Of a stretch of DNA of 56,063 nt, positions 6,752 through 43,292 are shown piece after piece; the first letter of the stretch is position 1; each line of letters starts with the position of its first letter. Both the position numbers and the translations under genes were made by a program. Source of the stretch: a virus (taxonomy: Duplodnaviria > Caudoviricetes); IMG/VR virus record IMGVR_UViG_3300025875_000029, positions 1 to 56,063 of that record; one strand, given 5' to 3'. The notes under the pieces were generated by a model that saw only the letters and a list, made by a program, of their open reading frames with translations, was not told where the DNA came from and did not search any database.

Positions 6752-6796
6752 AGGAACCGACACCAGGCTCCCGCCAGCGACACCGGCGGGGGCCGA

Positions 6797-6827
6797 TTTG
6801 CGTTCCAAGCAAAACCCGTGGTTTAAT
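6797..6827 (+). promoter_or_regulatory. Early-type promoter/operator driving a leaderless mRNA
   Basis: TTTGCGTTCCAAGCAAA...TGG-TTTAAT, then 6 nt to ATG 6834. Confidence 0.8.
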
Positions 6828-6833
6828 TTACGC

Positions 6834-7037
6834 ATGGCCACCACCGAGCACGCCGCCCATTGCATCGACCTCGCCAAGTACAGCGTCCAGGACGAGCTGG
6901 ACGCCCAGGGCATCGAGACGGCCCTCGACATCACCGACCCCGAGGCCGTCCTGACCATCCCGGCCTGGAACATGACGATGGACGAGGTCGTCGCCCAGTG
7001 GCTCGCCGACGGCAACATCACCTGCAACTGCCACTGA
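6834..7037 (+). CDS. Small acidic hypothetical protein (leaderless)
   Basis: ATG at the predicted +1; ends CNCH. Confidence 0.7.
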   Translation: MATTEHAAHCIDLAKYSVQDELDAQGIETALDITDPEAVLTIPAWNMTMDEVVAQWLADGNITCNCH

Positions 7038-7089: not shown

Positions 7090-8553
7090 TCAGGCCAGGG
7101 CCCGCCACTGGGCCGTAGTCAGCACCCGGATCTGCTCGTCGGTCTTGGTGGCCAGTAGCTCCCGGACCCGCTCGTCCACCGTGTCCGGCGTGACGTAGTC
7201 CCGGACCGTGACCGGCCGCTCCTGGCCGATCCGGTGGATCCGGCGCATCGCCTGCTGGTTGGTGCTCGGCCGGTACGACTTCTCCACGAAGATGCACATG
7301 TCGGCCGCCGTCAACGTCAGGCCCTCCGCCACCACGGGCAGGCTGCCGACGATCACGTCCAGCGAGCCCGCCTGGAACGCCTCCACGGCCTTCCGGCGCG
7401 CGGGGCGGCTGGTGGTGCCGTCGATGATCGCCGTGGACGCCCCGAGGCTCCGAGATACCTTCGCGCACGCCTGGAGTGTGTCCTTGAAGTGGCCCAGGAC
7501 CAGGGTCGGCCGGGCGCGGTACTCCAGGTCCGCCGCCAGCTGGTCCAGCTTCCCGCTGCCCCGGTCGCCGGACAGCACCGGGAGCCCGGTGCAGCACTTC
7601 GCGAGCTTGACATTGAGCGCGGCGTCGCCCCAGGCGACGATTTCATGGCCCTCCTCGGTCCAGGCGACGAAGTCTCGCTTCAGCGCCCGGTAGACCTTCG
7701 CCTGGGGGCCGGTCATCGGGGTCAGCACGGTCTGCTCGGTCAATGGCGGCAGGTCGGTCAGGACGTCGTCGCGGAACCGCTGCAGGAACCTGTCCCCCAG
7801 GTTCGCTGCGGCAAAGGCCCGGTAGTGCTCGCACGGGTCAACGGAGCGGCGGCGGGAGCACTCGTCGGTACACCCCAGCATCGATCCGACACTGGGGTTC
7901 CCGCCGGAGAACCGGGTGGGGGAGGTGTCGAACCACTGCTCGGCCCAGCGCCAGTACGACCCCAGCTCGCCTCCCCGCTGGGCCCGCTCGGGGTACATCA
8001 GCTGCAGGCCGACGAACAGTTCGTGCGCCCAGTTCGGCATCGGGGTCCCCGACGCCTGGTGGACCTGCCCGGCGCGGGCCGCCAGCTGCCGCGCGGTCGA
8101 GGTCCAGACGGTCTTGCGACCCTTCAGGTAGTGCGCCTCGTCGAAGATCACCGTCCCCCAGTCCCGGTCCAGCTCGGGCGGGAGCTTGTCGGACATGACC
8201 AGGATCTGCTGACCGGTCTTGGTCAGAACCGGGACGGGCTCCTTGCCCTTCTCCTTGGTCACCTTCGGGACCCGCTGGTTCAGCCGGGAGTAGGCGGTGA
8301 CGGTGACGTCCAGGTCCGGTGCCCACTTCCCGATCTCGGTAGCCCAGGTCCCGGAGTCGATGACCATCGCCGGGGCGACGACAAGGGTCGGGCCTTGCGC
8401 CGCCTCCAGCAACTGCCGAGACTTGCCCAGGCCGGGCTCATCCGCCAGGAACGCATGCGGGTGCTCCTTCAGAAACTGGACGCCGTCGGCCTGGAACGGG
8501 CGCAGCGGTGACCGGCCCGAGCTTCCCCCGGGCCGGGGTCGGATCCTCGGCAT
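7090..8553 (-). CDS. SNF2-like SF2 DNA helicase
   Basis: LRPFQ Q-motif, ADEPGLGKS Walker A, IFDEAH, SGTP, EGLTLT, QAMRRIHRIGQ. Confidence 0.92.
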   Translation of the reverse strand: MPRIRPRPGGSSGRSPLRPFQADGVQFLKEHPHAFLADEPGLGKSRQLLEAAQGPTLVVAPAMVIDSGTWATEIGKWAPDLDVTVTAYSRLNQRVPKVTKEKGKEPVPVLTKTGQQILVMSDKLPPELDRDWGTVIFDEAHYLKGRKTVWTSTARQLAARAGQVHQASGTPMPNWAHELFVGLQLMYPERAQRGGELGSYWRWAEQWFDTSPTRFSGGNPSVGSMLGCTDECSRRRSVDPCEHYRAFAAANLGDRFLQRFRDDVLTDLPPLTEQTVLTPMTGPQAKVYRALKRDFVAWTEEGHEIVAWGDAALNVKLAKCCTGLPVLSGDRGSGKLDQLAADLEYRARPTLVLGHFKDTLQACAKVSRSLGASTAIIDGTTSRPARRKAVEAFQAGSLDVIVGSLPVVAEGLTLTAADMCIFVEKSYRPSTNQQAMRRIHRIGQERPVTVRDYVTPDTVDERVRELLATKTDEQIRVLTTAQWRALA

Positions 8554-35464: not shown

Positions 35465-35549
35465 TTGAGGTGGTGGTCGGGGCCCTGCTCGGAGTGGCGT
35501 TCGTCGGCGGTCTGTTCGTGCTCGCTCACCGCCGATGGAGGTACCTCCC

Positions 35550-36977
35550 GTGACCCAGGCCCCGGCCACCCCACAGCCGCTGTGGATCCAACAGCTGAAG
35601 CAACGCCTGACCCCGCGTGAGAACGCCTGGAAGGCTCAGCCGAAACAGGCCACCGCGACCCGCCTCGCCGGGCAGGTGGACGACCTGCTGTATGGCGGCG
35701 CGGCCGGTGGCGGAAAGACCGAATGGCTGATCGAGTACATGATCGCCCAGTGCGAGCTGTACCCGAACAACCGCGTGATCGTGTTCCGCCGGGTCTACCC
35801 GTCACTGAACCGCACGGTCATTCCGCGCGCCAAGGCCAAGCTGAAGGGCCGGGCGAAGTGGAACGGCCAGGAACACACCTTCACGTTCCCCAACGGCTCG
35901 ATCTTTGAGGTCGGGTCGCTGCAGTACCTGGACTCGGTGATCGACTACCAGGGCGTCGAGTACGGCTGCATCGGGTTCGAGGAGATTACCGAGTTCCAGC
36001 AGTCCCAGGTGGAATTCCTGATCGGCCGCCTGCGGTCCACGATCCCCGGGGTCCGACCGCACCTGGTGGCCACCACCAACCCGGGCGGCGCTGGTCACAA
36101 GTGGGTGAAACGCTGGTGGGTGAAGCCGAAGAAGGAGGACATCGAGCCCGGCGAGATGCCTCCGGCTCCTTTCGAGGTGTGGCGGCCAGCTGCTACCGCC
36201 GACGTCCCCCGACCCAGGTCCCGGGCGTACGTACCCGCCACCCTGGAGGACAACCCGGCGCTGATGGCGGCCGACCCGGACTACGTCCACCGGCTGAACG
36301 CCAACTCCAAGCGAGCCCTGCGGGAGGCGTTGAAGAAGGGCGACTGGGATGCGATCGACCAGATCGAGGGCGCGCTGTGGGACGCGGCCGAGCTGGACCG
36401 GGGACGGGTGCGGCCGGAGCAGCTGAGCATGATCGGCGTAGCCCGCCGGGTGATCGCGGTCGACCCGTCGGACGGCGAGGAGGGTGGGGACGAGTTCGGC
36501 GTCTCGCACGTCGCGAAGGGCATGGACGGGGTCGGCTACGTACTGGGTTCCTGGGCCTGGCAGGCCAGCCCCCGGAAGATGGCGGAACGGGCGGTCGGGC
36601 TGTACTACGAGGTGGGCGCGGACGCGATGGTGATCGAACGCAACCACGGCGGGAAATGGATGACCGAGGTGTTCCGCCAGGTGGATCCGAACGTCCGGAT
36701 CATCGAGGTCTGGGCGAGTGACGGCAAGCGCACCCGGGCGGAACCCGTGTCGGCGCTGTTCGAGTACGACCAGTACGCGCTACTCCCGTACCGGGCGCGG
36801 ATGGTCGGGTACCAGCCGGAGTTGGAGGACGAGCTGGTCCTGACTGATTTCCGGCAGGGCGCTCCGTCCCCGAACCGGCTGGATGCGATGGTGTGGGGTT
36901 TGACGGACCTGATGCTGGGTCACCAGACCCGGGCGAGGAAGCCGGGCGGGGACGGCCGACACCGGGGACGACGCTAG
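35550..36977 (+). CDS. Terminase large subunit
   Basis: YGGAAGGGKT Walker A, IGFEE Walker B, TTNPGG, VIAVDPS, PNRLDA. Confidence 0.93.
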   Translation: MTQAPATPQPLWIQQLKQRLTPRENAWKAQPKQATATRLAGQVDDLLYGGAAGGGKTEWLIEYMIAQCELYPNNRVIVFRRVYPSLNRTVIPRAKAKLKGRAKWNGQEHTFTFPNGSIFEVGSLQYLDSVIDYQGVEYGCIGFEEITEFQQSQVEFLIGRLRSTIPGVRPHLVATTNPGGAGHKWVKRWWVKPKKEDIEPGEMPPAPFEVWRPAATADVPRPRSRAYVPATLEDNPALMAADPDYVHRLNANSKRALREALKKGDWDAIDQIEGALWDAAELDRGRVRPEQLSMIGVARRVIAVDPSDGEEGGDEFGVSHVAKGMDGVGYVLGSWAWQASPRKMAERAVGLYYEVGADAMVIERNHGGKWMTEVFRQVDPNVRIIEVWASDGKRTRAEPVSALFEYDQYALLPYRARMVGYQPELEDELVLTDFRQGAPSPNRLDAMVWGLTDLMLGHQTRARKPGGDGRHRGRR

Positions 36978-36978
36978 G

Positions 36979-37034
36979 TTTGCGCCCAGAGCAAGGCCAT
37001 GGTTGAATAGTCCTGTGGCCGGGGAGCACCGGCC
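36979..37034 (+). promoter_or_regulatory. Early-type promoter/operator plus GGAGCA-loop 5' hairpin
   Basis: TTGC-N7-GCAA, TGG-TTGAAT, GGCCGG-GGAGCA-CCGGCC. Confidence 0.8.
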
Positions 37035-37055
37035 AGGACTCGACGAGGAGCAGAC

Positions 37056-37535
37056 ATGACCGCCACCGAGAACACCAACCGCGTCACCGCCGACTTCATC
37101 GCCCCGAACGGGCACCACGTCGTGGCGGTCAGCTGGTACGGCAAGCAGGCGATCGTCAAGACCACCCAGCGCGGGACCACGACGATCCACCTCTCCGGCG
37201 ACCGGGTGACGGAGGCCGAGAACACCAACCTGTTCCACGGCATCCTGGACGTCGTCCACAAGGAGAACCTGGCCAAGGTCGCCGCCCAGGTCCCGAACGG
37301 CGGGGTCCCCGCCATCGCCGACACGGCCAGCCAGGCGCAGGCCGCCCGTGAGAAGGCCGACAAGACCGGGACCGAGCTGATCGAGGCGCTGGCCTCGGTC
37401 CTGCCCGTCCTGGACCGGAAGGTCGCCTACCGCCTCGACGGCCTGCTCGCCCAGCTCCGGGCTGACGAGTACACCGCCGGGTACGCGGCCGGCCGGGTCG
37501 TCAACGCCCGGGTCGACGGCTCCGCCCGCCACTGA
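37056..37535 (+). CDS. Hypothetical protein
   Basis: GAGGAG RBS; codon bias. Confidence 0.8.
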   Translation: MTATENTNRVTADFIAPNGHHVVAVSWYGKQAIVKTTQRGTTTIHLSGDRVTEAENTNLFHGILDVVHKENLAKVAAQVPNGGVPAIADTASQAQAAREKADKTGTELIEALASVLPVLDRKVAYRLDGLLAQLRADEYTAGYAAGRVVNARVDGSARH

Positions 37536-37603
37536 CTGCACGACCCGCCGCCGGGCAGATCCCGGCGGCGGGGCACCACCCCAGCACCGAGCTAGGAGCC
37601 GAA

Positions 37604-37918
37604 ATGTCCCAGTACGACCCCGCCCTTGACGACGCCGCCCGCGAGGCCCGCCTCCGCAAGGAGAACAAGAAGCCCCGGCGGTACTTCCCCTGGGTGTTCC
37701 TCGCGATCCAGCTGCTGTTCGTGATCTGGATCGTGTCCGCCATCGTCGGCAACTCCGGGGACCCCGTGGGAGACTGCGGGTCGCTGTCCCAGCAGGCGTG
37801 CAACGACGCCGAGTCGGTCGGCACCGGTATCGGGGTCGCCCTGGTGGTGATCCTTTGGCTGGTCGTGGACTTCATCCTCGCGATCACCTACCTGGTGTTC
37901 AAGGCCGTCAAGCGCTGA
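37604..37918 (+). CDS. 2-TM membrane protein with external Cys pair
   Basis: TAGGAG RBS; two TM helices around C-x7-C. Confidence 0.8.
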   Translation: MSQYDPALDDAAREARLRKENKKPRRYFPWVFLAIQLLFVIWIVSAIVGNSGDPVGDCGSLSQQACNDAESVGTGIGVALVVILWLVVDFILAITYLVFKAVKR

Positions 37919-37956
37919 CCCGGCCGGGGGCCCTGGCGAGCACCCAGGGCCCCCGG

Positions 37957-38016
37957 TTTGCGTTACCCGCAAATCCCGTGGTTTAATTTTGGGGTACGGC
38001 CGGGGAGCACCGGCCG
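37957..38016 (+). promoter_or_regulatory. Early-type promoter/operator plus GGAGCA-loop 5' hairpin
   Basis: TTTGCGTTACCCGCAAA, TGG-TTTAAT, CGGCCGG-GGAGCA-CCGGCCG. Confidence 0.8.
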
Positions 38017-38037
38017 CCAACCCGCGAGGAGCCCAAC

Positions 38038-38376
38038 GTGACCAGCACCCCCAGCACCACCGCCACTGCGCCCGCCGAGGTCGCCCCCGCCGACTTTACC
38101 GGCTACCTCATCGTCTACGTGCTGGACGGCGAGGGCCCCGGGATCTGGCAGGTCGTCCGGACCCCCGGCGCCTGGTGCGAGACCTGCAACGCCAACCCGG
38201 AGAACACCCCGGCCAGCCAGCTCTACCGGACGGTCGCCCTCAGCCACCAGTTCGACCCGGAGCTGGGGGTCTGCCACCGTTGCCTCGTCGGGGTCTGGGA
38301 GACCCGGCAGGACCCGCGCACCCCGCCGAGCAACGACGGCCTGGCGTACGTCTACCCGCCCAGCGACCGGGTCTGA
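38038..38376 (+). CDS. Hypothetical Zn-binding protein
   Basis: GAGGAG RBS; CETC...CHRC. Confidence 0.75.
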   Translation: MTSTPSTTATAPAEVAPADFTGYLIVYVLDGEGPGIWQVVRTPGAWCETCNANPENTPASQLYRTVALSHQFDPELGVCHRCLVGVWETRQDPRTPPSNDGLAYVYPPSDRV

Positions 38377-38419
38377 ACCACCGGGGGCCCGGCCGACACG
38401 CCGGGCCCCCCGCCCCCAG

Positions 38420-38478
38420 TTTGCGCGGGACGCAAGTCCCGCGGTTAGATTGCCCCATCGGGCCGGGAGCACGGCCCG
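38420..38478 (+). promoter_or_regulatory. Early-type promoter/operator plus GGAGCA-loop 5' hairpin
   Basis: TTGC-N7-GCAA, CGG-TTAGAT, CGGGCCG-GGAGCA-CGGCCCG. Confidence 0.8.
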
Positions 38479-38496
38479 CGACACGAGGAGCCCCAA

Positions 38497-38877
38497 ATGC
38501 CCATGCAGACCGCCACCGCCCAGCTCGCCGCGAACCGCCGCATCCTGGAGGCGCTCGGCGTCCCCCGCATCCCCACGGTCGAGGAGGCCGTGATCCTGAC
38601 CGGGAGCACGGTCGGGACGTACCTCATCGAGGAGATCAACAAGCAGGCGTTCGAGGTGGCCCAGGCCGACGCCGACGCCATCCGGGCCGCCGGTGAGATC
38701 CAGCGCTACGCGAACGACGTGGCGGATCGGATCGCGAAGCACGAGTACACCGATGGGACCTGGGTCGGCCAGGCCGCCGGGCGGGTCGTCGAGGCCACCA
38801 ACAAGCGCCGTGAGGCGCTGCGGACCCTGGCCCAGCTGACCTACGCCGCCAGCAAGGCCGTGGTCGACTTCTCCTGA
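38497..38877 (+). CDS. Hypothetical helical protein
   Basis: GAGGAG RBS; codon bias. Confidence 0.8.
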   Translation: MPMQTATAQLAANRRILEALGVPRIPTVEEAVILTGSTVGTYLIEEINKQAFEVAQADADAIRAAGEIQRYANDVADRIAKHEYTDGTWVGQAAGRVVEATNKRREALRTLAQLTYAASKAVVDFS

Positions 38878-38937
38878 CCGCCCGCCGGGGGCCCCGAACT
38901 GGGGCCCCCGGCACCACCCTTCGAAGGAGCAGGAGAC

Positions 38938-39348
38938 ATGGGCAACTGTCGCGACTGCGGGACCCCGCTCAGCGAGGAGAACACCTACCGGAACCAGACC
39001 CGGCGGACCTGCCGGAGCTGCCTGACGGCCCGGGTGGCGGCCCACGACCGGGAGCTGAACGAGCGCACCCGGGAGACCGCCGACAACTATTACCAGCGGT
39101 GGGAGGCGCACGAGCTGGAGCTGCTGCTGCAGGGTATCGCGGAGGGCACCTCGCTGATGGACCTGGCAGTGGTCCTGGGCCGGACCCGTCACGGGGTCGC
39201 GACGAAGCTCAACTCGATCCGCCGGGCTGAGGAGGCGGGGGATACCGTCCAGGCCGCCCGGAGGGCTCCCAGCGGGCGGACGACCCCAGCCGTGGCGGTC
39301 CGTACATGCACCGTCTGTTTCGTGGTGGTGCCCTGCTTCTGCGACTGA
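38938..39348 (+). CDS. Zn-finger plus HTH/Myb-like DNA-binding protein
   Basis: CRDC...CRSC; WEAHELELL...LAVVLGRTRHGVATK; C-terminal CTVC...CFCD. Confidence 0.7.
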   Translation: MGNCRDCGTPLSEENTYRNQTRRTCRSCLTARVAAHDRELNERTRETADNYYQRWEAHELELLLQGIAEGTSLMDLAVVLGRTRHGVATKLNSIRRAEEAGDTVQAARRAPSGRTTPAVAVRTCTVCFVVVPCFCD

Positions 39349-39416
39349 CCCGAGGACGAAACCCTGGGAAGGGTCCACGGCTGGGTGGCCGTGCTGATGA
39401 GTCCGGGTCGACTCAC
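39347..39416 (+). ncRNA. Type II hammerhead ribozyme (HH1); predicted cleavage after C39375
   Basis: GGAC-GAA-ACCCT(GGGA)AGGGT-C-CACGGC(TGGGTG)GCCGTG-CTGATGA-GTCC; stem II extension GACCC/GGGTC; loop I UGGGU pairs with 3' ACUCA. Confidence 0.93.
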
Positions 39417-39427
39417 GAGGAGGAACC

Positions 39428-39826
39428 ATGCAGGTCATGAAGGCAGTACGCGGGACCGCTGTCGCGGGCGCGGTCGCAGTCGCCGCCCTCGCCCCGCTGG
39501 TCGGGCCGGTGGCACCAGTCCTGGTCCCGTCCCTGGTCCTGGCCGAAGGCCCCTCGTCCGGGGTCGCCCAGGAGGCGGACGCCGCTTTCTACGGGGTGGT
39601 CTACAACCAGTCCGCCCACTTCGTGAACGTCCAGTTCGAGAACGGGGTAAGCCGGAGTCTCCCACCGGGCGAGTTCTCGGGCAGCTTCTCCGACGTCCGC
39701 AAGTTCACGACCTTGACCGGGTGCGAGACATATCGCCTGGACGGGGCCGGGACCTGGCGCACCCTGACCAAGGGGGCCTCGGTCCTGCTGAGCAACCGCA
39801 TGGCGGAGGTTCGCAGCCGCTGCTGA
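39428..39826 (+). CDS. Small secreted protein bracketed by hammerheads
   Basis: GAGGAGG RBS; hydrophobic signal, ADA site, beta-rich domain with two Cys. Confidence 0.8.
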   Translation: MQVMKAVRGTAVAGAVAVAALAPLVGPVAPVLVPSLVLAEGPSSGVAQEADAAFYGVVYNQSAHFVNVQFENGVSRSLPPGEFSGSFSDVRKFTTLTGCETYRLDGAGTWRTLTKGASVLLSNRMAEVRSRC

Positions 39827-39831
39827 CCCCA

Positions 39832-39902
39832 GGTCCCGAGGACGAAACGCCGCGAGGCGTCCGTGGCTGAGCAGTCACGCCGACGAGTCCGGACCGACTC
39901 AC
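39832..39902 (+). ncRNA. Type II hammerhead ribozyme (HH2, core variant CCGACGA); predicted cleavage after C39861
   Basis: GGAC-GAA-ACGCC(GCGA)GGCGT-C-CGTGGC(TGAGCA)GTCACG-CCGACGA-GTCC; extension GGTCC/GGACC; loop I UGAG pairs with 3' CUCA. Confidence 0.85.
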
Positions 39903-39915
39903 TGAAGGAGCCGAA

Positions 39916-40431
39916 ATGCGATCCATCATGAAGCCCCGCACCCGCGTCGCCGCGTTGTTAGTGGCGGCTACGGCCGGGTTCTCCGGCGCGGCTGTCGCCT
40001 TCCCGGTGGCGGGGCCGTCCGCCCCGGCACCGGAGTCGGCGCTGACGGCGGAGGCGTACGACACCCCGGAGGAGGCGATCCGGGCGGCGGAGGCTCAGTC
40101 CAGCGGTACCAACCTGCTCGGGCAGCCGATGCCTGCGGCCGACGCGCACCACAACCACTACCGGGCCATCTACCACCACAGCAACAGCGTGGTGGGGTCG
40201 CTGACCTACGCCGACGACGGCGGGACCTCGTGGGGGCTCGGTCGTGGGGGCGGCACCTGCTGCTTCCAGGGCGGGTCGGTGTACGTGGGGTCGGCGCACG
40301 ACGTGATCGAGACGTCGCGGGAACGGCCCAGCTGGGCCCGTCGGCTAGCGAACACCGGCTGGTACGGCGTCGCCGCGCTGGACAGCCCCGGGCACATGTA
40401 CTACCGGGCCGTGCCCAACGGCGGTAACTGA
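39916..40431 (+). CDS. Small secreted His/Gly-rich protein downstream of HH2
   Basis: AAGGAG RBS; Sec signal (AVA), Pro/Ala/Glu linker, ADA site, CC pair. Confidence 0.8.
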   Translation: MRSIMKPRTRVAALLVAATAGFSGAAVAFPVAGPSAPAPESALTAEAYDTPEEAIRAAEAQSSGTNLLGQPMPAADAHHNHYRAIYHHSNSVVGSLTYADDGGTSWGLGRGGGTCCFQGGSVYVGSAHDVIETSRERPSWARRLANTGWYGVAALDSPGHMYYRAVPNGGN

Positions 40432-40475
40432 TCGCACACCGCCCGGGGTCGTCGCGACATGCGGCGGCCCCCGGG

Positions 40476-40531
40476 TTTGCGGCCCACGCAAACCCGTGGT
40501 TTACTGGTCATACGGGCGAGGAGCATCGCCC
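40476..40531 (+). promoter_or_regulatory. Early-type promoter/operator plus GGAGCA-loop 5' hairpin
   Basis: TTTGCGGCCCACGCAAA, TGG-TTTACT, GGGCGA-GGAGCA-TCGCCC. Confidence 0.8.
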
Positions 40532-40551
40532 ACGGAGCAAAGGAGCCCGAT

Positions 40552-40800
40552 ATGCGCGAACTCTGGCAGACCGAGATCAAGATGGACGGCCAGCTGGTCA
40601 CCAACCCCGGTGTCGCGGAGGACATCCTCCGGACCCTCGGGGTCGAGTACACCGAGATCGAGGTCGAGTCGGCCGAGGACGGGCTCTACCTCGTCGGGTT
40701 CCTCGGCCGGGAAGCCCGCTACCTCGCCGCCGACACCGAGGTCTGGATCTCCGAGGACCTGGGCGGCAAGAACTTCCAGGTCTACGTCCCGCAGCCCTGA
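40552..40800 (+). CDS. Small acidic hypothetical protein
   Basis: AAGGAG RBS, ATG 40552. Confidence 0.75.
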   Translation: MRELWQTEIKMDGQLVTNPGVAEDILRTLGVEYTEIEVESAEDGLYLVGFLGREARYLAADTEVWISEDLGGKNFQVYVPQP

Positions 40801-40857
40801 GACACCCGCCCCGCCCCCACCCGGGGGCGGGGCACCCTTTACCCGGAAGCAGGAGCC

Positions 40858-41010
40858 GTGAGTAAGCTCGAAACCCTCCGTCGCACCCTCTACTTCGCCC
40901 AGCGCGGGATCGGGGACATCCAGGCCGCCCAGCGCGGCCCCGAGGTCCTCGCCAAGCGTATCGTCCGCCGCTCGGTCACCCGGGCCCTCTTCCGGGCGTT
41001 CGGGCTGTGA
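40858..41010 (+). CDS. Small basic hypothetical protein (50 aa)
   Basis: CAGGAG RBS, GTG 40858; GTGA overlap with the next gene. Confidence 0.6.
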   Translation: MSKLETLRRTLYFAQRGIGDIQAAQRGPEVLAKRIVRRSVTRALFRAFGL

Positions 41011-41285
41011 ACGTCAACCTGGGCCCGGCGCACATCGCCCACGAGGAGGCTCTGAAGGCCCAGATCGACCAGCACCGGGCGGTGATGGTGGTGGCTTTCC
41101 CGACCTTCCGGTTCGCCAGCTCACCCGTCCTGGTGCCGGACGAGGAGCACGAGGCGCTGGGCGTTTACCAGGTCTGGTGGCCGGTGGTGGACTCAGCCAC
41201 CAGTCAAGCGACCTTCCTGCACGTCAGCCCCGACGGCGTCCGGGTGGAGATGGAGGCGATCCTCCCCGACCACTGGTTCAGCTAG
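41007..41285 (+). CDS. Hypothetical protein
   Basis: Translationally coupled ORF. Confidence 0.6.
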   Translation: MNVNLGPAHIAHEEALKAQIDQHRAVMVVAFPTFRFASSPVLVPDEEHEALGVYQVWWPVVDSATSQATFLHVSPDGVRVEMEAILPDHWFS

Positions 41286-41349
41286 GATAGACCGAGCAGC
41301 AGAGGAGGTGATGGCGATGCGCGGCTGGAAGTGGAACTGAGCACCCGAA

Positions 41350-41385
41350 GAGAGGCCCCCGACCCCTGAGGTTCGGGGGCCTCTC
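41350..41385 (+). terminator. Terminator-like hairpin closing the accessory island
   Basis: GAGAGGCCCCCGA...TCGGGGGCCTCTC. Confidence 0.7.
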
Positions 41386-41468
41386 CATGTTTGGGGTAAC
41401 CTGGCGTCGTCACTCCCGGCTGATCGGGGCGGTCCGGCCGGGAGTGACCCCAACGATGAAGGAGCAGA

Positions 41469-43292
41469 GTGGCTGACGAGCTGATCTTCGACCAGTACAC
41501 GCCGCTGTCCTTCAAGGCCGCCATCGGGGAGTCGGACCGGCCGGGCATCGCCTGGACCGCGCCGACCTGGGTCGGGGACGAGGCCAGGCGTCGTCTGCAG
41601 GCGTACAAGCTGCTCCAGGCGTACCTGGACAACGCGTCCCGTGAATTCATCGGGGACAGTGACCCGGAGAGCCGAGCCCGCCACCGGGAGTACGGCGACG
41701 CCGCCCTGATCCGGGACACGACCCTGGCCGCCCTCCTGGGCGTGGACGTCCACATCGCGACCGACGGCGCGGCCGACTTCGACCCCGACGACGAAGAGGC
41801 CGACCCCGACCCTGACGCCGAGGCCGCGTTCGACTTCCAGGACTGGGTGCAGGACTGGGCGACCAAGGAGCGGTTCCGGCTGAAGCTGATGGAGGCCGAG
41901 CGCACTTCGGTCGGCCTCGGCGACGCCGTGTACACCCTCGGGTACTCGCCGGAGAAGGAGCGGGTCCGGCTGCGGGTCTGGGACCCCGGGTTCTACTTCC
42001 CGGTCCTGGACGACGGGAATGAGGACGACTACCCGCGCACGGTCCACATCGCCTGGGAACTCCCCCGGGACGAGGACCGGCCGGGCGAGCTGAAGATCCG
42101 CCGCCTGACCTGGCGGCTGGGCGGGATCCGGCCGGTGGTGGACGTGTCCGGCCCGATCCCCAGCGTCCGCCCCGGTCCCGGCGACGGCACCGACCGGCGG
42201 ACCGGCCGAATCACCCGAAACTACGCGTGGAACGACAAGCCCGCGTTCGAGACCTGCTACTTCAGCGACGGTACCTGGACGCTGGACAATGTCGACAAGT
42301 GGGGCGTCGCCCGGCTGGCCGACGAGGACGGGGTCTACCAGACCCAGTACAACGAGCGAACCGGCGAGTTCGAGGAGATCCGGGACCTGGACCTGCGGAT
42401 CGACTTCATCCCGGTGGTGCACGTCCCGAACACCGTCGCGATCGCGAACCACTTCGGGCAGTCCACGCTGTCCCGGGTGCTGCAGATTCTGGACGACCTG
42501 TCGAACGCCGACACCGACATGCAGGCCGCCGCCGCCACGTCCGGCCGTCCGGTGATGGCGCTGGAGGGTGGGTCGCTCGGGAACCGTGTCGCGACCTACG
42601 AGCCCGGCGAGGTCTGGGAGGTCGGCGGCGGGAAGCTGACGGTCATCGACACGACCTCCAGCCTGGCCGCGCTCCAGGGATTGGTCGACGCCCTGTGGCG
42701 GCGGCTCTCGTCGAACTCGCGCATCCCGGAGAGCCTCCTGGGGCGGGTCGCCCCGTCCGAGGTCCCGTCGGGGGTCGCCCTGGCGCTGTCGTTCGGCCCG
42801 CTGTCGAGCATGATCGACGAGATGCGGCTGAGCCGGGCCGACAAGTACCCGCTGCTGTTCAAGTTCGTGCACCGGATGAGCCAGGCGGCGCTGCTGCCGG
42901 AGGTGCCCGCCGAGTACCTGGAGACGACCCTGGACTTCGGGCCGTTCCTGCCCTCGGACAAGGACGGGATCGCGACCACCGTGGCGGCCCTGCTGCAGGC
43001 GAAGGCGATCGGCCGGAATACCGCCGTCCGCTGGTTGAAGTCCGCCGGTTGGGACGTCGAGACCGTGAGCGACGAGGTCAGCGACATCCAGGCGATCGAC
43101 TTCGAAGGTGCCGGGGCGATCCTGGATCTGACCGGCGACGTCCAGGCCGCCATCGACTACCTGGGGTTGGAGGGCGTGGTGGCGGTTCGCCAGCCCGCAC
43201 CGGAGGAGCCCGAGGTGGACGAGGACGGCAATCCGGTCGAGGATGACCCAGCCGACGAGACAGAACCGCCCGCCGGACCGCCTGCTCCCTAA
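41469..43292 (+). CDS. Portal protein
   Basis: 607 aa, first gene of the head module; GLGDAV, PVVHVPN, GQSTL, PSGVAL patterns. Confidence 0.85.
   Translation: MADELIFDQYTPLSFKAAIGESDRPGIAWTAPTWVGDEARRRLQAYKLLQAYLDNASREFIGDSDPESRARHREYGDAALIRDTTLAALLGVDVHIATDGAADFDPDDEEADPDPDAEAAFDFQDWVQDWATKERFRLKLMEAERTSVGLGDAVYTLGYSPEKERVRLRVWDPGFYFPVLDDGNEDDYPRTVHIAWELPRDEDRPGELKIRRLTWRLGGIRPVVDVSGPIPSVRPGPGDGTDRRTGRITRNYAWNDKPAFETCYFSDGTWTLDNVDKWGVARLADEDGVYQTQYNERTGEFEEIRDLDLRIDFIPVVHVPNTVAIANHFGQSTLSRVLQILDDLSNADTDMQAAAATSGRPVMALEGGSLGNRVATYEPGEVWEVGGGKLTVIDTTSSLAALQGLVDALWRRLSSNSRIPESLLGRVAPSEVPSGVALALSFGPLSSMIDEMRLSRADKYPLLFKFVHRMSQAALLPEVPAEYLETTLDFGPFLPSDKDGIATTVAALLQAKAIGRNTAVRWLKSAGWDVETVSDEVSDIQAIDFEGAGAILDLTGDVQAAIDYLGLEGVVAVRQPAPEEPEVDEDGNPVEDDPADETEPPAGPPAP

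Follow-up and report, generated by a model that had tools for sequence, protein, structure and literature searches.

A tandem pair of probable type II hammerhead ribozymes between the genes of a putative accessory operon in a high-GC tailed phage

Two type II hammerhead motifs between phage genes

Two type II hammerhead motifs were identified on the plus strand of a 56,063-nucleotide virus record (IMG/VR IMGVR_UViG_3300025875_000029; Duplodnaviria, Caudoviricetes), at positions 39354-39404 (copy 1) and 39840-39890 (copy 2). The whole of this stretch is hereafter referred to as the window; the record is 72% complete and carries terminase and portal genes. Both motifs are probably genuine type II hammerheads that each cut the operon RNA between two genes. 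The putative operon comprises four accessory genes and is located, in this tailed phage of high-GC, Streptomyces type, between terminase and portal. The motifs, their conservation with covariation and their typical gene context are observed directly, as described below.

In both copies the elements are arranged 5' to 3' as stem II strand GGAC, GAAA, stem III hairpin, GUC, stem I hairpin, 7-nt core, and GUCC, with a stem II of 4 bp, a stem III of 5 bp plus a tetraloop, and a stem I of 6-7 bp. Loops close stems I and III and stem II is open, giving the three-helix topology of type II. The initial annotation had claimed two type II hammerheads with GUC cleavage sites, GNRA loops on stem III, and stems I and III that are unlike in sequence between the copies but paired in each, and all of these points were borne out (C17 at 39375 and 39861; loops GGGA in copy 1 and GCGA in copy 2). 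Since C17 is located at 39375 and 39861, the cut-to-cut fragment is 486 nt long, as had been calculated. Together with its flanking elements, hammerhead 1 extends over 39347-39416, with the consensus core CUGAUGA and predicted cleavage after C 39375, and hammerhead 2 over 39832-39902, with the variant core CCGACGA and predicted cleavage after C 39861. All the hammerhead-conserved core positions (C3 U4 G5 A6 N7 G8 A9, G12 A13 A14, A15.1-U16.1 and H17) are present in copy 1 (CUGAUGA, GAA, the A15.1-U16.1 pair, and C17), and all except U4 in copy 2, in which this base is C and N7 is also C. The description of both as full hammerheads thus fits copy 1, but the U4C change in copy 2 had been missed. 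Stem II may be extended outward in hammerhead 1 by pairing of GACCC (39347-39351) with GGGUC (39405-39409), and a possible outer helix of hammerhead 2 is formed by GGUCC (39832-39836) and GGACC (39891-39895). The tail GACUCAC follows at 39410-39416 in hammerhead 1 and at 39896-39902 in hammerhead 2.

Organization of the operon and its relative

Comparison of the region was made with 16.4 kb of L123, a sister contig found by a metagenome scan. This is the only relative found, because the scans of GenBank phages, IMG/VR and GTDB came out empty: the locus, ORF1 and ORF2 gave no match in 50,697 GenBank phage records at the DNA and protein levels, IMG/VR scans with ORF1, ORF2, P0002 (see below) and an alignment of the HTH protein gave no relative, and neither did a GTDB genome scan with the HTH alignment. 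The terminase and portal of L123 are 89% and 86% identical to those of the window, respectively.

The proposed start of the transcription unit (38383-38450, plus strand, as are all features below) is composed of a terminator-like GC hairpin (38383-38410) and a promoter-like element (38420-38450) with TTTGCG at 38420-38425, CGCAAG at 38431-38436, and a -10-like sequence at about 38443-38450. The proposed end (40442-40505) is composed of a terminator-like hairpin (40442-40475), then TTTG, and the next promoter-like module (40476-40505). The hairpin-plus-motif module at 38383-38450 recurs at 40442-40505, and it occurs twice in L123, where it follows the gene for P0002; for the proposed end, a motif search gave one match in the window versus none in 100 shuffles. 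Because a consensus promoter and terminator scan of 36900-41600 found nothing, these promoters and terminators are presented as putative. From the flanking modules we infer that both hammerheads lie within one transcription unit.

Four genes are predicted in this unit. The first (38497-38877; 126 aa; GC3 0.96), taken from the ORF list, belongs to no family, with no match in Pfam or PHROG, and is 53% identical to L123 6953-7291. The second (38938-39348; 136 aa) encodes a Cys-rich HTH-like DNA-binding protein (phrog_2511 'HTH DNA binding protein', E = 3.5e-6), 51% identical to L123 7499-7918, and its stop codon overlaps the outer helix of hammerhead 1. ORF1 (39428-39826; 132 aa), with a GC3 of 0.89 versus 0.56 for the overlapping alternative frame, starts with a signal-peptide-like N-terminus (K5 and R8, then 31 uncharged residues). 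ORF2 (39916-40431; 171 aa; GC3 0.91) likewise has a signal-peptide-like N-terminus (R2, K6, R8, and R10, then an uncharged stretch), and its C-terminal domain of about 100 aa is conserved, is rich in His at the start, and contains a CC pair. The products had been described as secreted; the signal-peptide-like N-termini are there, as judged by a crude N-terminal rule of our own rather than a dedicated predictor.

One homologue of ORF2 was found, P0002 (131 aa), with 71% identity over 57% of ORF2 (68% in the alignment) and a signal peptide ending in AQA. ORF1 retrieved only itself among 5.8 billion clusters, only itself and two weak repeat matches in a 1.84-billion HMMER library, and nothing by tblastn in the 16.4 kb of L123. 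Neither ORF1 nor ORF2 matched Pfam or PHROGs, and in a protein atlas they gave only scores below 0.9 with TM below 0.55. The two are not detectably paralogues, because their best BLASTP E-value is 0.11.

Each ribozyme follows a stop codon (39346-39348 and 39824-39826) and precedes an SD-like site (39417-39423 and 39904-39910) and an ATG (39428 and 39916), confirming the order of stop codon, hammerhead and Shine-Dalgarno (SD) site of a small gene noted initially.

Statistical and comparative support for the hammerheads

The possibility was considered that the motifs arose by chance or form structures unrelated to hammerheads. A structural descriptor, in which C4 was allowed, matched twice in the window, whereas not a single match was obtained in any of 300 dinucleotide shuffles even at this relaxed setting. 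A covariance model built here from 54 hammerheads of other phage contigs, preselected for paired stems (R1), gave 61.7 bits for copy 1 (E = 5e-12) and 55.3 bits for copy 2 (E = 1.5e-10), and the next-best match in 72 kb was 12.8 bits. The comparison set was gathered with a pattern from the core and stem II of this very window, so agreement of R1 and this set with the core and stem II is by design, and their independent evidence is the stems only.

In favor of the chance reading is the outcome of the check proposed in the initial annotation, search with the Rfam model of type II hammerheads (Hammerhead_II, RF02276): no match was obtained in the whole window at the gathering score of 37 bits, copy 1 scored 19.7 bits (E = 0.52), and copy 2 was not listed at E <= 10. 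The same model, however, gave only three threshold matches in 10 loci with 28 pattern-matched hammerheads, which shows that RF02276 is insensitive to this subclass and that its threshold misses most members. At E <= 1 the only Rfam match in the whole window was a sub-threshold Rothia-sucC; therefore, no other known ribozyme class is located nearby.

Further evidence against a chance origin came from L123, in which one orthologous hammerhead (65.5 bits with R1) occupies the corresponding position, with the HTH gene on one side and the homologue of ORF2 on the other. When the three copies are compared, all 45 of the 45 pair cells hold standard pairs, and in four of the pairs both sides have changed; as high a score was reached by 8 of 500 shuffles, and slid controls were 26-44% paired. 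By the descriptor shuffles, the R1 scores and these compensatory changes the chance reading is effectively refuted, and we regard its probability as practically nil. The minimum-energy fold of copy 1 is the hammerhead fold, and that of copy 2 lies 1.2 kcal/mol below its hammerhead fold.

Loop I is complementary to the tail at the same place in all three hammerheads, over 5 bp in copy 1 (UGGGU/ACUCA), 4 bp in copy 2 (UGAG/CUCA), and 5 bp in L123. According to Perreault et al. (2011, PMC3088659), most type II members have a pseudoknot of at least 4 bp at this place. Among 134 other phage hammerheads, complementarity of at least 4 bp was found in 32% with real tails versus 35% with shuffled tails, and the changes among the copies are one-sided only. 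The pseudoknot between loop I and GACUCAC in the initial annotation is thus present as complementarity, but at chance frequency and with its G-U to A-U change one-sided, and it was dropped as independent support.

Context of phage hammerheads

A gene end within 30 nt upstream together with an SD site and start codon within 70 nt downstream was found for 110 of 164 phage hammerheads, versus 55 of 1640 places chosen at random within these loci. The stop codon was located within 5 nt of the ribozyme in 104 of 147 cases; this usual abutment hints at a possible coupling with translation termination. Arrays of two to five copies, with a spacing of 250-2587 nt, were present in 31 of 143 locus-strands, and the present copies, both on the plus strand, 486 nt apart and bracketing ORF1, form such a tandem array.

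Signal-peptide-like proteins, called by the same crude rule and against rough control gene calls, were encoded downstream of 9 of 135 phage hammerheads versus 91 of 2058 control ORFs, and an enrichment of such proteins was rejected. A search of related phages for units of ribozyme, SD and signal peptide had been suggested; among the phage hammerheads surveyed here the ribozyme-SD context was typical, and the proposed module for phage-secreted effectors is no general rule.

The U4C variant of copy 2

U4C is a rare natural variant and slower by report: the change 'considerably decreases activity in vitro', and a viroid with a U4C hammerhead stays infectious according to the discussion by Perreault et al. 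(2011; their ref. 30). Copy 2 may be weak or inactive because U4C lowers activity in vitro. It could accordingly be a duplicate in decay that is retained for the ORF1 RNA as a structured spacer or 3'-end hairpin, with copy 1 alone at work, and ORF1 and ORF2 would therefore remain on one RNA. The loss of a conserved core base, the R1 score below that of copy 1, the failure of Rfam to detect copy 2, and a minimum-energy fold that is not exactly the hammerhead all agree with such decay. Against it, all 15 of 15 pairs are intact and two stem I pairs are altered on both sides, which argues for selection on the structure of copy 2 after duplication. In addition, among 26 distinct non-U4 matches in phage hammerheads, 24 have C4, at least 15 of them well formed, and these C4 variants recur in normal gene contexts, unlike the single A4 and the single G4 match, which are without stems and look random. 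The infectious viroid carries the identical substitution at core position 4, apparently tolerated in nature, but in a motif of other topology that serves rolling-circle replication, whereas the variant here belongs to the operon of a dsDNA phage and is seen again in 24 distinct IMG/VR hammerheads. Taken with these points, decay of copy 2 is rather unlikely. U4C variants of type II, or examples from actinophages, may already be among the alignments of Perreault et al. (2011).

Proposed self-processing of the operon RNA

The reading with the best support, as put forward initially, is that the operon RNA processes itself at two sites between genes, in analogy to tandem prophage and type II hammerheads for which cleavage is reported. 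Transcription would proceed from about 38450 to about 40475, and each ribozyme would fold just past the stop codon of the preceding gene and cut after GUC (39375 and 39861), parting the regulator-type genes from ORF1, and ORF1 from ORF2. The downstream RNAs would have a 5'-OH and begin with the stem I hairpin, their start lying about 40 nt before an exposed Shine-Dalgarno site, and the upstream RNAs would carry a 2',3'-cyclic phosphate at the end of their stem III hairpin; as a likely effect, neighboring genes would gain different stability and translation. Copy 1 with its consensus core should cut fast, and copy 2 with U4C would probably be slower, leaving a share of dicistronic ORF1-ORF2 RNA. 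The GC-rich helix of 9 bp made of stem II and its extension could hold the products together, favoring re-ligation. For this operon we infer that cleavage takes place, as well as how fast it is and how it affects expression.

RiboJ, a synthetic insulator, is an engineered part from a satellite-RNA hammerhead, and in insulators of this type a hammerhead just before the ribosome-binding site strips the upstream RNA context from the downstream gene. The phage copies resemble RiboJ in their location just upstream of a ribosome-binding site, but they are natural elements, for which insulation would be hypothetical.

The two copies share with the type II hammerheads (RF02276), as described by Perreault et al. 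(2011), the topology, the core (copy 1), the GUC triplet, the GNRA-capped stem III, the 3' tail that can pair with loop I, and the location in intergenic spacers of phage operons. They differ from these in scores below the Rfam threshold, in U4C and N7 = C of copy 2, in a possible outward extension of stem II by 5 bp beyond a bulge of 2-3 nt, and in support for the pseudoknot at chance level. The arrangement is close to that of the prophage arrays of Clostridium scindens, Azorhizobium caulinodans, and the Agrobacterium tumefaciens ardA locus (Perreault et al. 2011), in which a single small gene is framed by two equally oriented ribozymes in a polycistronic phage transcript; processing into single-gene mRNAs was proposed, and circular or spliced products were considered, in the same report. 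The present array differs in its high-GC actinophage-like virus and its cargo of two signal-peptide-like proteins of no known family, and, whereas the tandem prophage hammerheads are reported to cleave in vitro and in E. coli, its own cleavage is predicted. Three type II hammerheads of D. vulgaris are likewise reported to cleave in vivo (Olzog 2021). The layout of intergenic hammerheads in phage operons, mRNA processing by them, and single-gene mRNAs with spliced or circular products were thus already described or named in 2011, and the present case is ordinary in that this layout is well known in phages.

Circular RNA and gene-cassette readings

The 486-nt fragment 39376-39861 might be joined head to tail into a circular mRNA by a host RtcB-type ligase or by reversal of the hammerhead reaction. 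Such a circle, as proposed, would carry the SD site, ORF1 and a rebuilt hybrid hammerhead. Hammerhead cleavage is known to leave ligatable ends, in agreement with this idea. The claim that the junction would restore a canonical core held up, as the hybrid (5' half of copy 2 plus 3' half of copy 1) has all pairs and the consensus core of copy 1, with outer helix strands still pairable including two G-U pairs, and it departs from the L123 hammerhead in just 2 of 51 positions. However, the hybrid does not have the hammerhead as its minimum-energy fold, a rebuilt active hammerhead would re-open the circle, and neither RtcB nor RNA ligase (RNA_ligase) was matched in the window of this 72% complete record. 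When Perreault et al. (2011) probed three tandem arrays for circular or spliced products, they detected none, and a literature search for circular RNA of phage or prophage hammerheads found only this paper and reviews. Retrozymes and viroid-like circular RNAs, as described by de la Pena et al. (2020, PMC7761336), are similar in that tandem hammerheads define a unit-length RNA with ligatable ends, but they are mostly non-coding eukaryotic elements with type I or III motifs, for which circles and reverse transcription are demonstrated, in contrast to the window with no match for a reverse transcriptase (RVT_1) or ligase. The formation of a circular mRNA is considered very improbable.

The hammerhead-to-hammerhead unit might also be a gene cassette gained or lost at the ribozyme, with RNA processing being secondary. 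The routes proposed are DNA recombination between hammerhead copies, and RNA cut-and-join followed by copying into DNA. The two phages differ by one such unit, since L123 has one hammerhead and no ORF1 in the 16.4 kb compared, and the ribozyme halves on the 486-nt unit match the L123 hammerhead at 49 of 51 positions (2 differences), whereas the outer halves show 13 differences in 51. In 11 related loci, an identical hammerhead is preceded by a variable segment whose end coincides exactly with the 5' edge of the ribozyme, which is also in line with exchange at the ribozyme. An ungapped comparison had suggested a mosaic break immediately downstream of one widespread hammerhead, but this proved to be an artefact of a 1-nt indel; by gapped BLAST the downstream sequences are 89-98% identical in all pairs, and the variable segment directly upstream remains.

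The half-pattern does not discriminate, because duplication followed by divergence of one stem per copy would give it in one of four equally likely ways. Local duplication is favored, because the two window copies share flanks that L123 lacks, CCCGA before the ribozyme and GG..CGACUCAC after it. Furthermore, gene flux is general in the region, as three other genes are also without counterpart in L123, and the lack of a reverse transcriptase match in the window again counts against a cassette. Gain or loss of a cassette at the ribozyme is thus quite improbable, and the stricter proposal, in which the cut-to-cut stretch with stem I half, SD, ORF1 and stem III half would move as a portable cassette exactly at the ribozyme cut sites, is highly improbable.

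Biological implications

On the preferred reading, processing of the operon RNA by two hammerheads, the locus extends by one tandem type II array a class known since 2011, the role of which is still unproven; the phage lineage it comes from is high in GC and has been poorly sampled. If the portable cassette were real, phages would shuffle genes by a ribozyme-defined system that leaves hammerhead arrays as its footprints, and the 486-nt RNA, in linear or circular form, would be the intermediate. As L123 differs by exactly one ribozyme-to-ribozyme unit, the growth of such arrays can be considered on these two phages as a concrete example. Within one transcript, the paralogous ribozymes, one with the consensus core and the other with U4C, constitute a natural test case that could show whether variation in the core adjusts how much mRNA is processed relative to the amount left unprocessed.

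Detection of two type II hammerhead motifs

The same order of elements was found at 39354-39404 (copy 1) and 39840-39890 (copy 2): GGAC, GAAA, a 5-bp hairpin with an A-U outer pair and a GGGA or GCGA loop, GUC, a 6-7-bp hairpin, a 7-base core, and a closing GUCC that pairs with the opening GGAC. As judged by sequence, this order is that of the type II hammerhead permutation. The predicted cleavage residue, C17, falls at 39375 and 39861, the positions assigned in the initial annotation, leaving an inter-cut fragment of 486 nt. A descriptor written for this analysis, demanding perfect stems, GAAA, the A-U pair, H17 and the core CYGANGA, identified exactly two sites in the window, namely both copies, and even in its relaxed form none in 300 dinucleotide-preserving shuffles.

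The Rfam model Hammerhead_II (RF02276) gave no match in the window at the gathering score; in E-value mode copy 1 scored 19.7 bits, where the threshold is 37, and copy 2 was not listed. A pattern scan of IMG/VR yielded at least 119 stretches with such hammerheads. In ten IMG/VR loci with 28 pattern matches, the Rfam threshold was reached only three times, two of these being extra copies with another stem II. For the present phage subclass the curated model lacks sensitivity, and the absence of an Rfam call on the window copies says little.

Because Rfam called so few of the 28, a covariance model, R1, was built from 54 distinct hammerheads found on other phage contigs and run, with filters switched off, against the window and L123, a sister phage contig. 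The scores were 61.7 bits for copy 1 (E = 5e-12), 55.3 bits for copy 2 (E = 1.5e-10) and 65.5 bits for the L123 hammerhead, the next best match in window and L123 being 12.8 bits; agreement in the core is by design in this comparison set, since its gathering pattern was derived from the core and stem II of the window itself, and the set was preselected for paired stems. The independent information is the pairing of stems I and III, which the gathering pattern left free.

Comparison with the sister phage

The window, an entire linear IMG/VR record of 56,063 bases (estimated completeness 72%, G+C 69%), carries the hammerhead locus within a block of small genes, flanked by the large terminase (35535-36977; Pfam Terminase_6N/6C) on one side and the portal protein (41469-43292; phrog_64) on the other. 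Streptomyces phage ZL12 has the closest portal among GenBank phages (39% identity), so the host is likely an actinomycete. Terminase and portal are 89% and 86% identical to those of L123; for the accessory genes in between, identity is 51-84% or a counterpart is lacking. The stretch 37056-41285 is hypervariable, and 37056-37535, ORF1 (39428..39826, 132 aa, between the two hammerheads), 40552-40800 and 41007-41285 found no match in the 16.4 kb of L123 examined. The order in L123 is an orthologous helix-turn-helix (HTH) gene, a single hammerhead (7921-7971) beginning two bases past its stop codon, an SD site, and the gene for P0002, the homologue of ORF2 (39916..40431, 171 aa, after copy 2).

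For pair counts, both copies and the L123 hammerhead were aligned without gaps. Standard pairs occupied 45 of 45 cells. Both partners had changed in four pairs, stem III of copy 1 and stem I of copy 2 each contributing two, and one further pair had gone from G-C to G-U. This pair score was reached in only 8 of 500 shuffles, and slid controls were 26-44% paired with 0-1 double changes. At the level of sequence, this is direct evidence for selection on the hammerhead stems in the lineage of the window and L123. In all three, stem II can be drawn about five pairs longer on its outer side, beyond a bulge of 1-3 nt. The sequences differ (GACCC/GGGUC, GGUCC/GGACC, and UUGAC with G.UCGA), and in GC-rich sequence this is weak evidence for an outer stem.

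A pseudoknot between loop I and the tail had also been proposed for both copies. The complementarity is present (UGGGU/ACUCA in copy 1, UGAG/CUCA in copy 2). Matches of at least 4 bp, however, occurred in 43 of 134 other phage hammerheads among the matches listed (32%), against 35% with shuffled tails, and the G-U to A-U change is one-sided. With complementarity at the level of chance and a one-sided change, the pseudoknot in the window copies is putative, though compatible with the data.

Core variant of copy 2

Of the two copies initially described as full hammerheads, copy 1 stands as such, but copy 2 has the core CCGACGA, in which the conserved U4 is replaced by C and N7 is also C. A second scan of IMG/VR, with any base except U at position 4, gave 35 stretches and 26 distinct matches, 24 of which carried C4 together with a GGAC/GUCC stem II. 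At least 15 of the 24 were well formed by a strict parse (stem III of at least 4 bp, stem I of at least 5 bp), a lower bound as several of the others were mis-parsed by the lazy regular expression. Most C4 hammerheads have intact stems and a downstream SD and start. The sole A4 match and the sole G4 match lacked stems, and both look random. One C4 example, at locus L069, has L123-like stems, and the protein of its next gene has an N-terminal hydrophobic segment. According to the passages on this variant in Perreault 2011 (PMC3088659), U4C "considerably decreases activity in vitro" but still permits viroid infectivity. Given this and the recurrence of C4 in phages, copy 2 is best read as an attenuated rather than a dead hammerhead.

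Gene context of phage hammerheads

The context of distinct hammerheads in IMG/VR loci was surveyed among the matches listed. For 110 of 164 listed hammerheads, an open frame closes within 30 nt upstream and the SD and start of an ORF of at least 40 aa lie within 70 nt downstream; this two-sided context was found at only 55 of 1640 random positions of the same loci. Upstream, 147 of 171 listed hammerheads have an open frame of 60 codons or more that closes within 40 nt; it ends within 5 nt of the first G in 104 of the 147, and touches or overlaps it in 62. The placement after an upstream stop codon noted initially agrees with the survey distribution, the gaps being 5 and 13 nt in the window and 2 nt in L123. 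Among the matches listed, 31 of 143 locus-strands carried 2-5 copies, with spacings from 250 to 2587 nt, including 459, 470, 488, 504 and 509 nt.

In 21 of 171 listed hammerheads, all with the core CUGAUGA, ATCAG directly follows stem II; it is complementary to the core CUGAU and could form an alternative, inhibitory hairpin. One identical hammerhead is common to eleven loci (L019, L030, L032, L054, L055, L081, L083, L090, L096, L109 and L116), of which the downstream 1 kb is 89-98% identical in all pairs. The upstream sides are homologous save for the last ~110-250 nt, and this variable segment stops exactly at the 5' edge of the hammerhead.

Proteins encoded by ORF1 and ORF2

Codon-position G+C marks both ORFs as real genes: GC3 is 0.89 for ORF1 and 0.91 for ORF2, as in the terminase and portal genes, against 0.56 for the overlapping alternative frame. 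Their description as secreted is a prediction made from the signal-peptide-like N-termini; in ORF1, K5 and R8 precede 31 uncharged residues with VLA at their end, and ORF2 has four basic residues within the first ten, followed by an uncharged stretch. A general rule of secreted cargo did not emerge: among the matches listed, 9 of 135 downstream proteins, P0002 included, were signal-peptide-like by a crude N-terminal rule, against 91 of 2058 control ORFs.

For ORF1, 5.8 billion clusters contained no relative but itself, and the HMMER library of 1.84 billion representatives gave itself and two weak matches (E = 1e-4 and 9.5e-4). The weak matches cover residues ~99-130 (39722-39817), on seven repeated stretches in proteins of 1194 and 1929 aa, and structure matches in the atlas were SpaA/Cna_B-type folds with TM 0.4-0.5. 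ORF1 may consist of one Ig-like repeat. The sole homologue of ORF2 is P0002 (71% identity over 57% of ORF2).

Proposed circular RNA, gene cassette and local duplication

The initial annotation had raised a circular RNA formed from the 486-nt fragment 39376-39861; this, like the gain or loss of a hammerhead-to-hammerhead gene cassette at the ribozyme, is unlikely. No match to RtcB, an RNA ligase or a reverse transcriptase was found in the window, which is 72% complete. At the circle junction, copy 2 would supply the 5' half and copy 1 the 3' half; this hybrid and the L123 hammerhead differ at 2 of 51 positions, the reciprocal hybrid and the L123 hammerhead at 13, so the halves on the 486-nt unit are conserved and the outer halves have diverged. 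Integration of a circle with an L123-like junction into a ribozyme already in place would be expected to leave such a pattern. A local duplication after which one stem III and one stem I diversify, however, gives the same pattern in one of four equally likely outcomes, and flanks common to the two window copies and absent from L123 favour this course; three other genes of the region likewise lack L123 counterparts. For these reasons, we do not think that the half-pattern discriminates between the models.

Proposed processing of a putative transcription unit

A hairpin-promoter-like module, consisting of a GC-rich hairpin, TTTGCG, an inverted CGCAA(A/G) and a -10-like hexamer, brackets the accessory operon genes at 38383-38450 and 40442-40505, as it does in L123. 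After the inverted CGCAA(A/G) it has TGGTTTAC or GGTTAGAT; the L123 copies lie at about 6790-6870 and 8400-8470. The module resembles a terminator with a phage promoter behind it, the promoter containing an operator-like inverted repeat. A consensus promoter/terminator scanner reported nothing in 36900-41600. If the modules are real, the unit would comprise promoter, gene 38497-38877, HTH gene 38938-39348, hammerhead 1, ORF1, hammerhead 2, ORF2 and terminator. In the spacer ahead of the HTH gene (38867-38934), Rothia-sucC RNA was matched below its Rfam gathering score of 64.5 (28.6 bits, E = 0.17), probably by chance.

Type II hammerheads and the loop I-tail pseudoknot are described in Perreault 2011 (PMC3088659), where the relevant passages propose processing into operon-length or single-gene-length mRNAs, give spliced or circular products, which the authors could not detect, as an alternative, and report that three tandem arrays cleave in vitro and one in E. 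coli. Other papers mention closely spaced, phage-linked hammerheads flanking small non-conserved ORFs (de la Pena 2017 review, PMC6155905), in vivo cleavage of three D. vulgaris type II hammerheads, at least one beside phage-origin genes (Olzog 2021, PMC8782182), and polycistronic processing as a suggested, still unproven role (Weinberg 2019, PMC6765202). A literature search on circular RNAs derived from hammerheads of phages or prophages returned only these papers and unrelated reviews. The interpretation first offered for this locus, circle included, is thus the standard hypothesis, already published.

Motifs, covariation and context are observed at the window locus, and from these cleavage may be predicted. 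Hammerheads cut 3' of C17, leaving a 2',3'-cyclic phosphate and a 5'-OH. The primary transcript would be cut into at most three RNAs, each downstream RNA starting with a 5'-OH and the stem I hairpin, with an unpaired SD roughly 40 nt on, and each upstream RNA ending in the stem III hairpin. Through cleavage, neighbouring genes would become independent of each other in stability and translation. A ribosome terminating at the upstream stop, which falls within or next to the 5' strand of stem II, would sit over this half of the ribozyme, and folding or product release may be tied to translation of the upstream gene; the abutting stop codon suggests such coupling with termination. The window copies are real ribozyme motifs of typical structure and context, one paralogue having a core that reads as attenuated.
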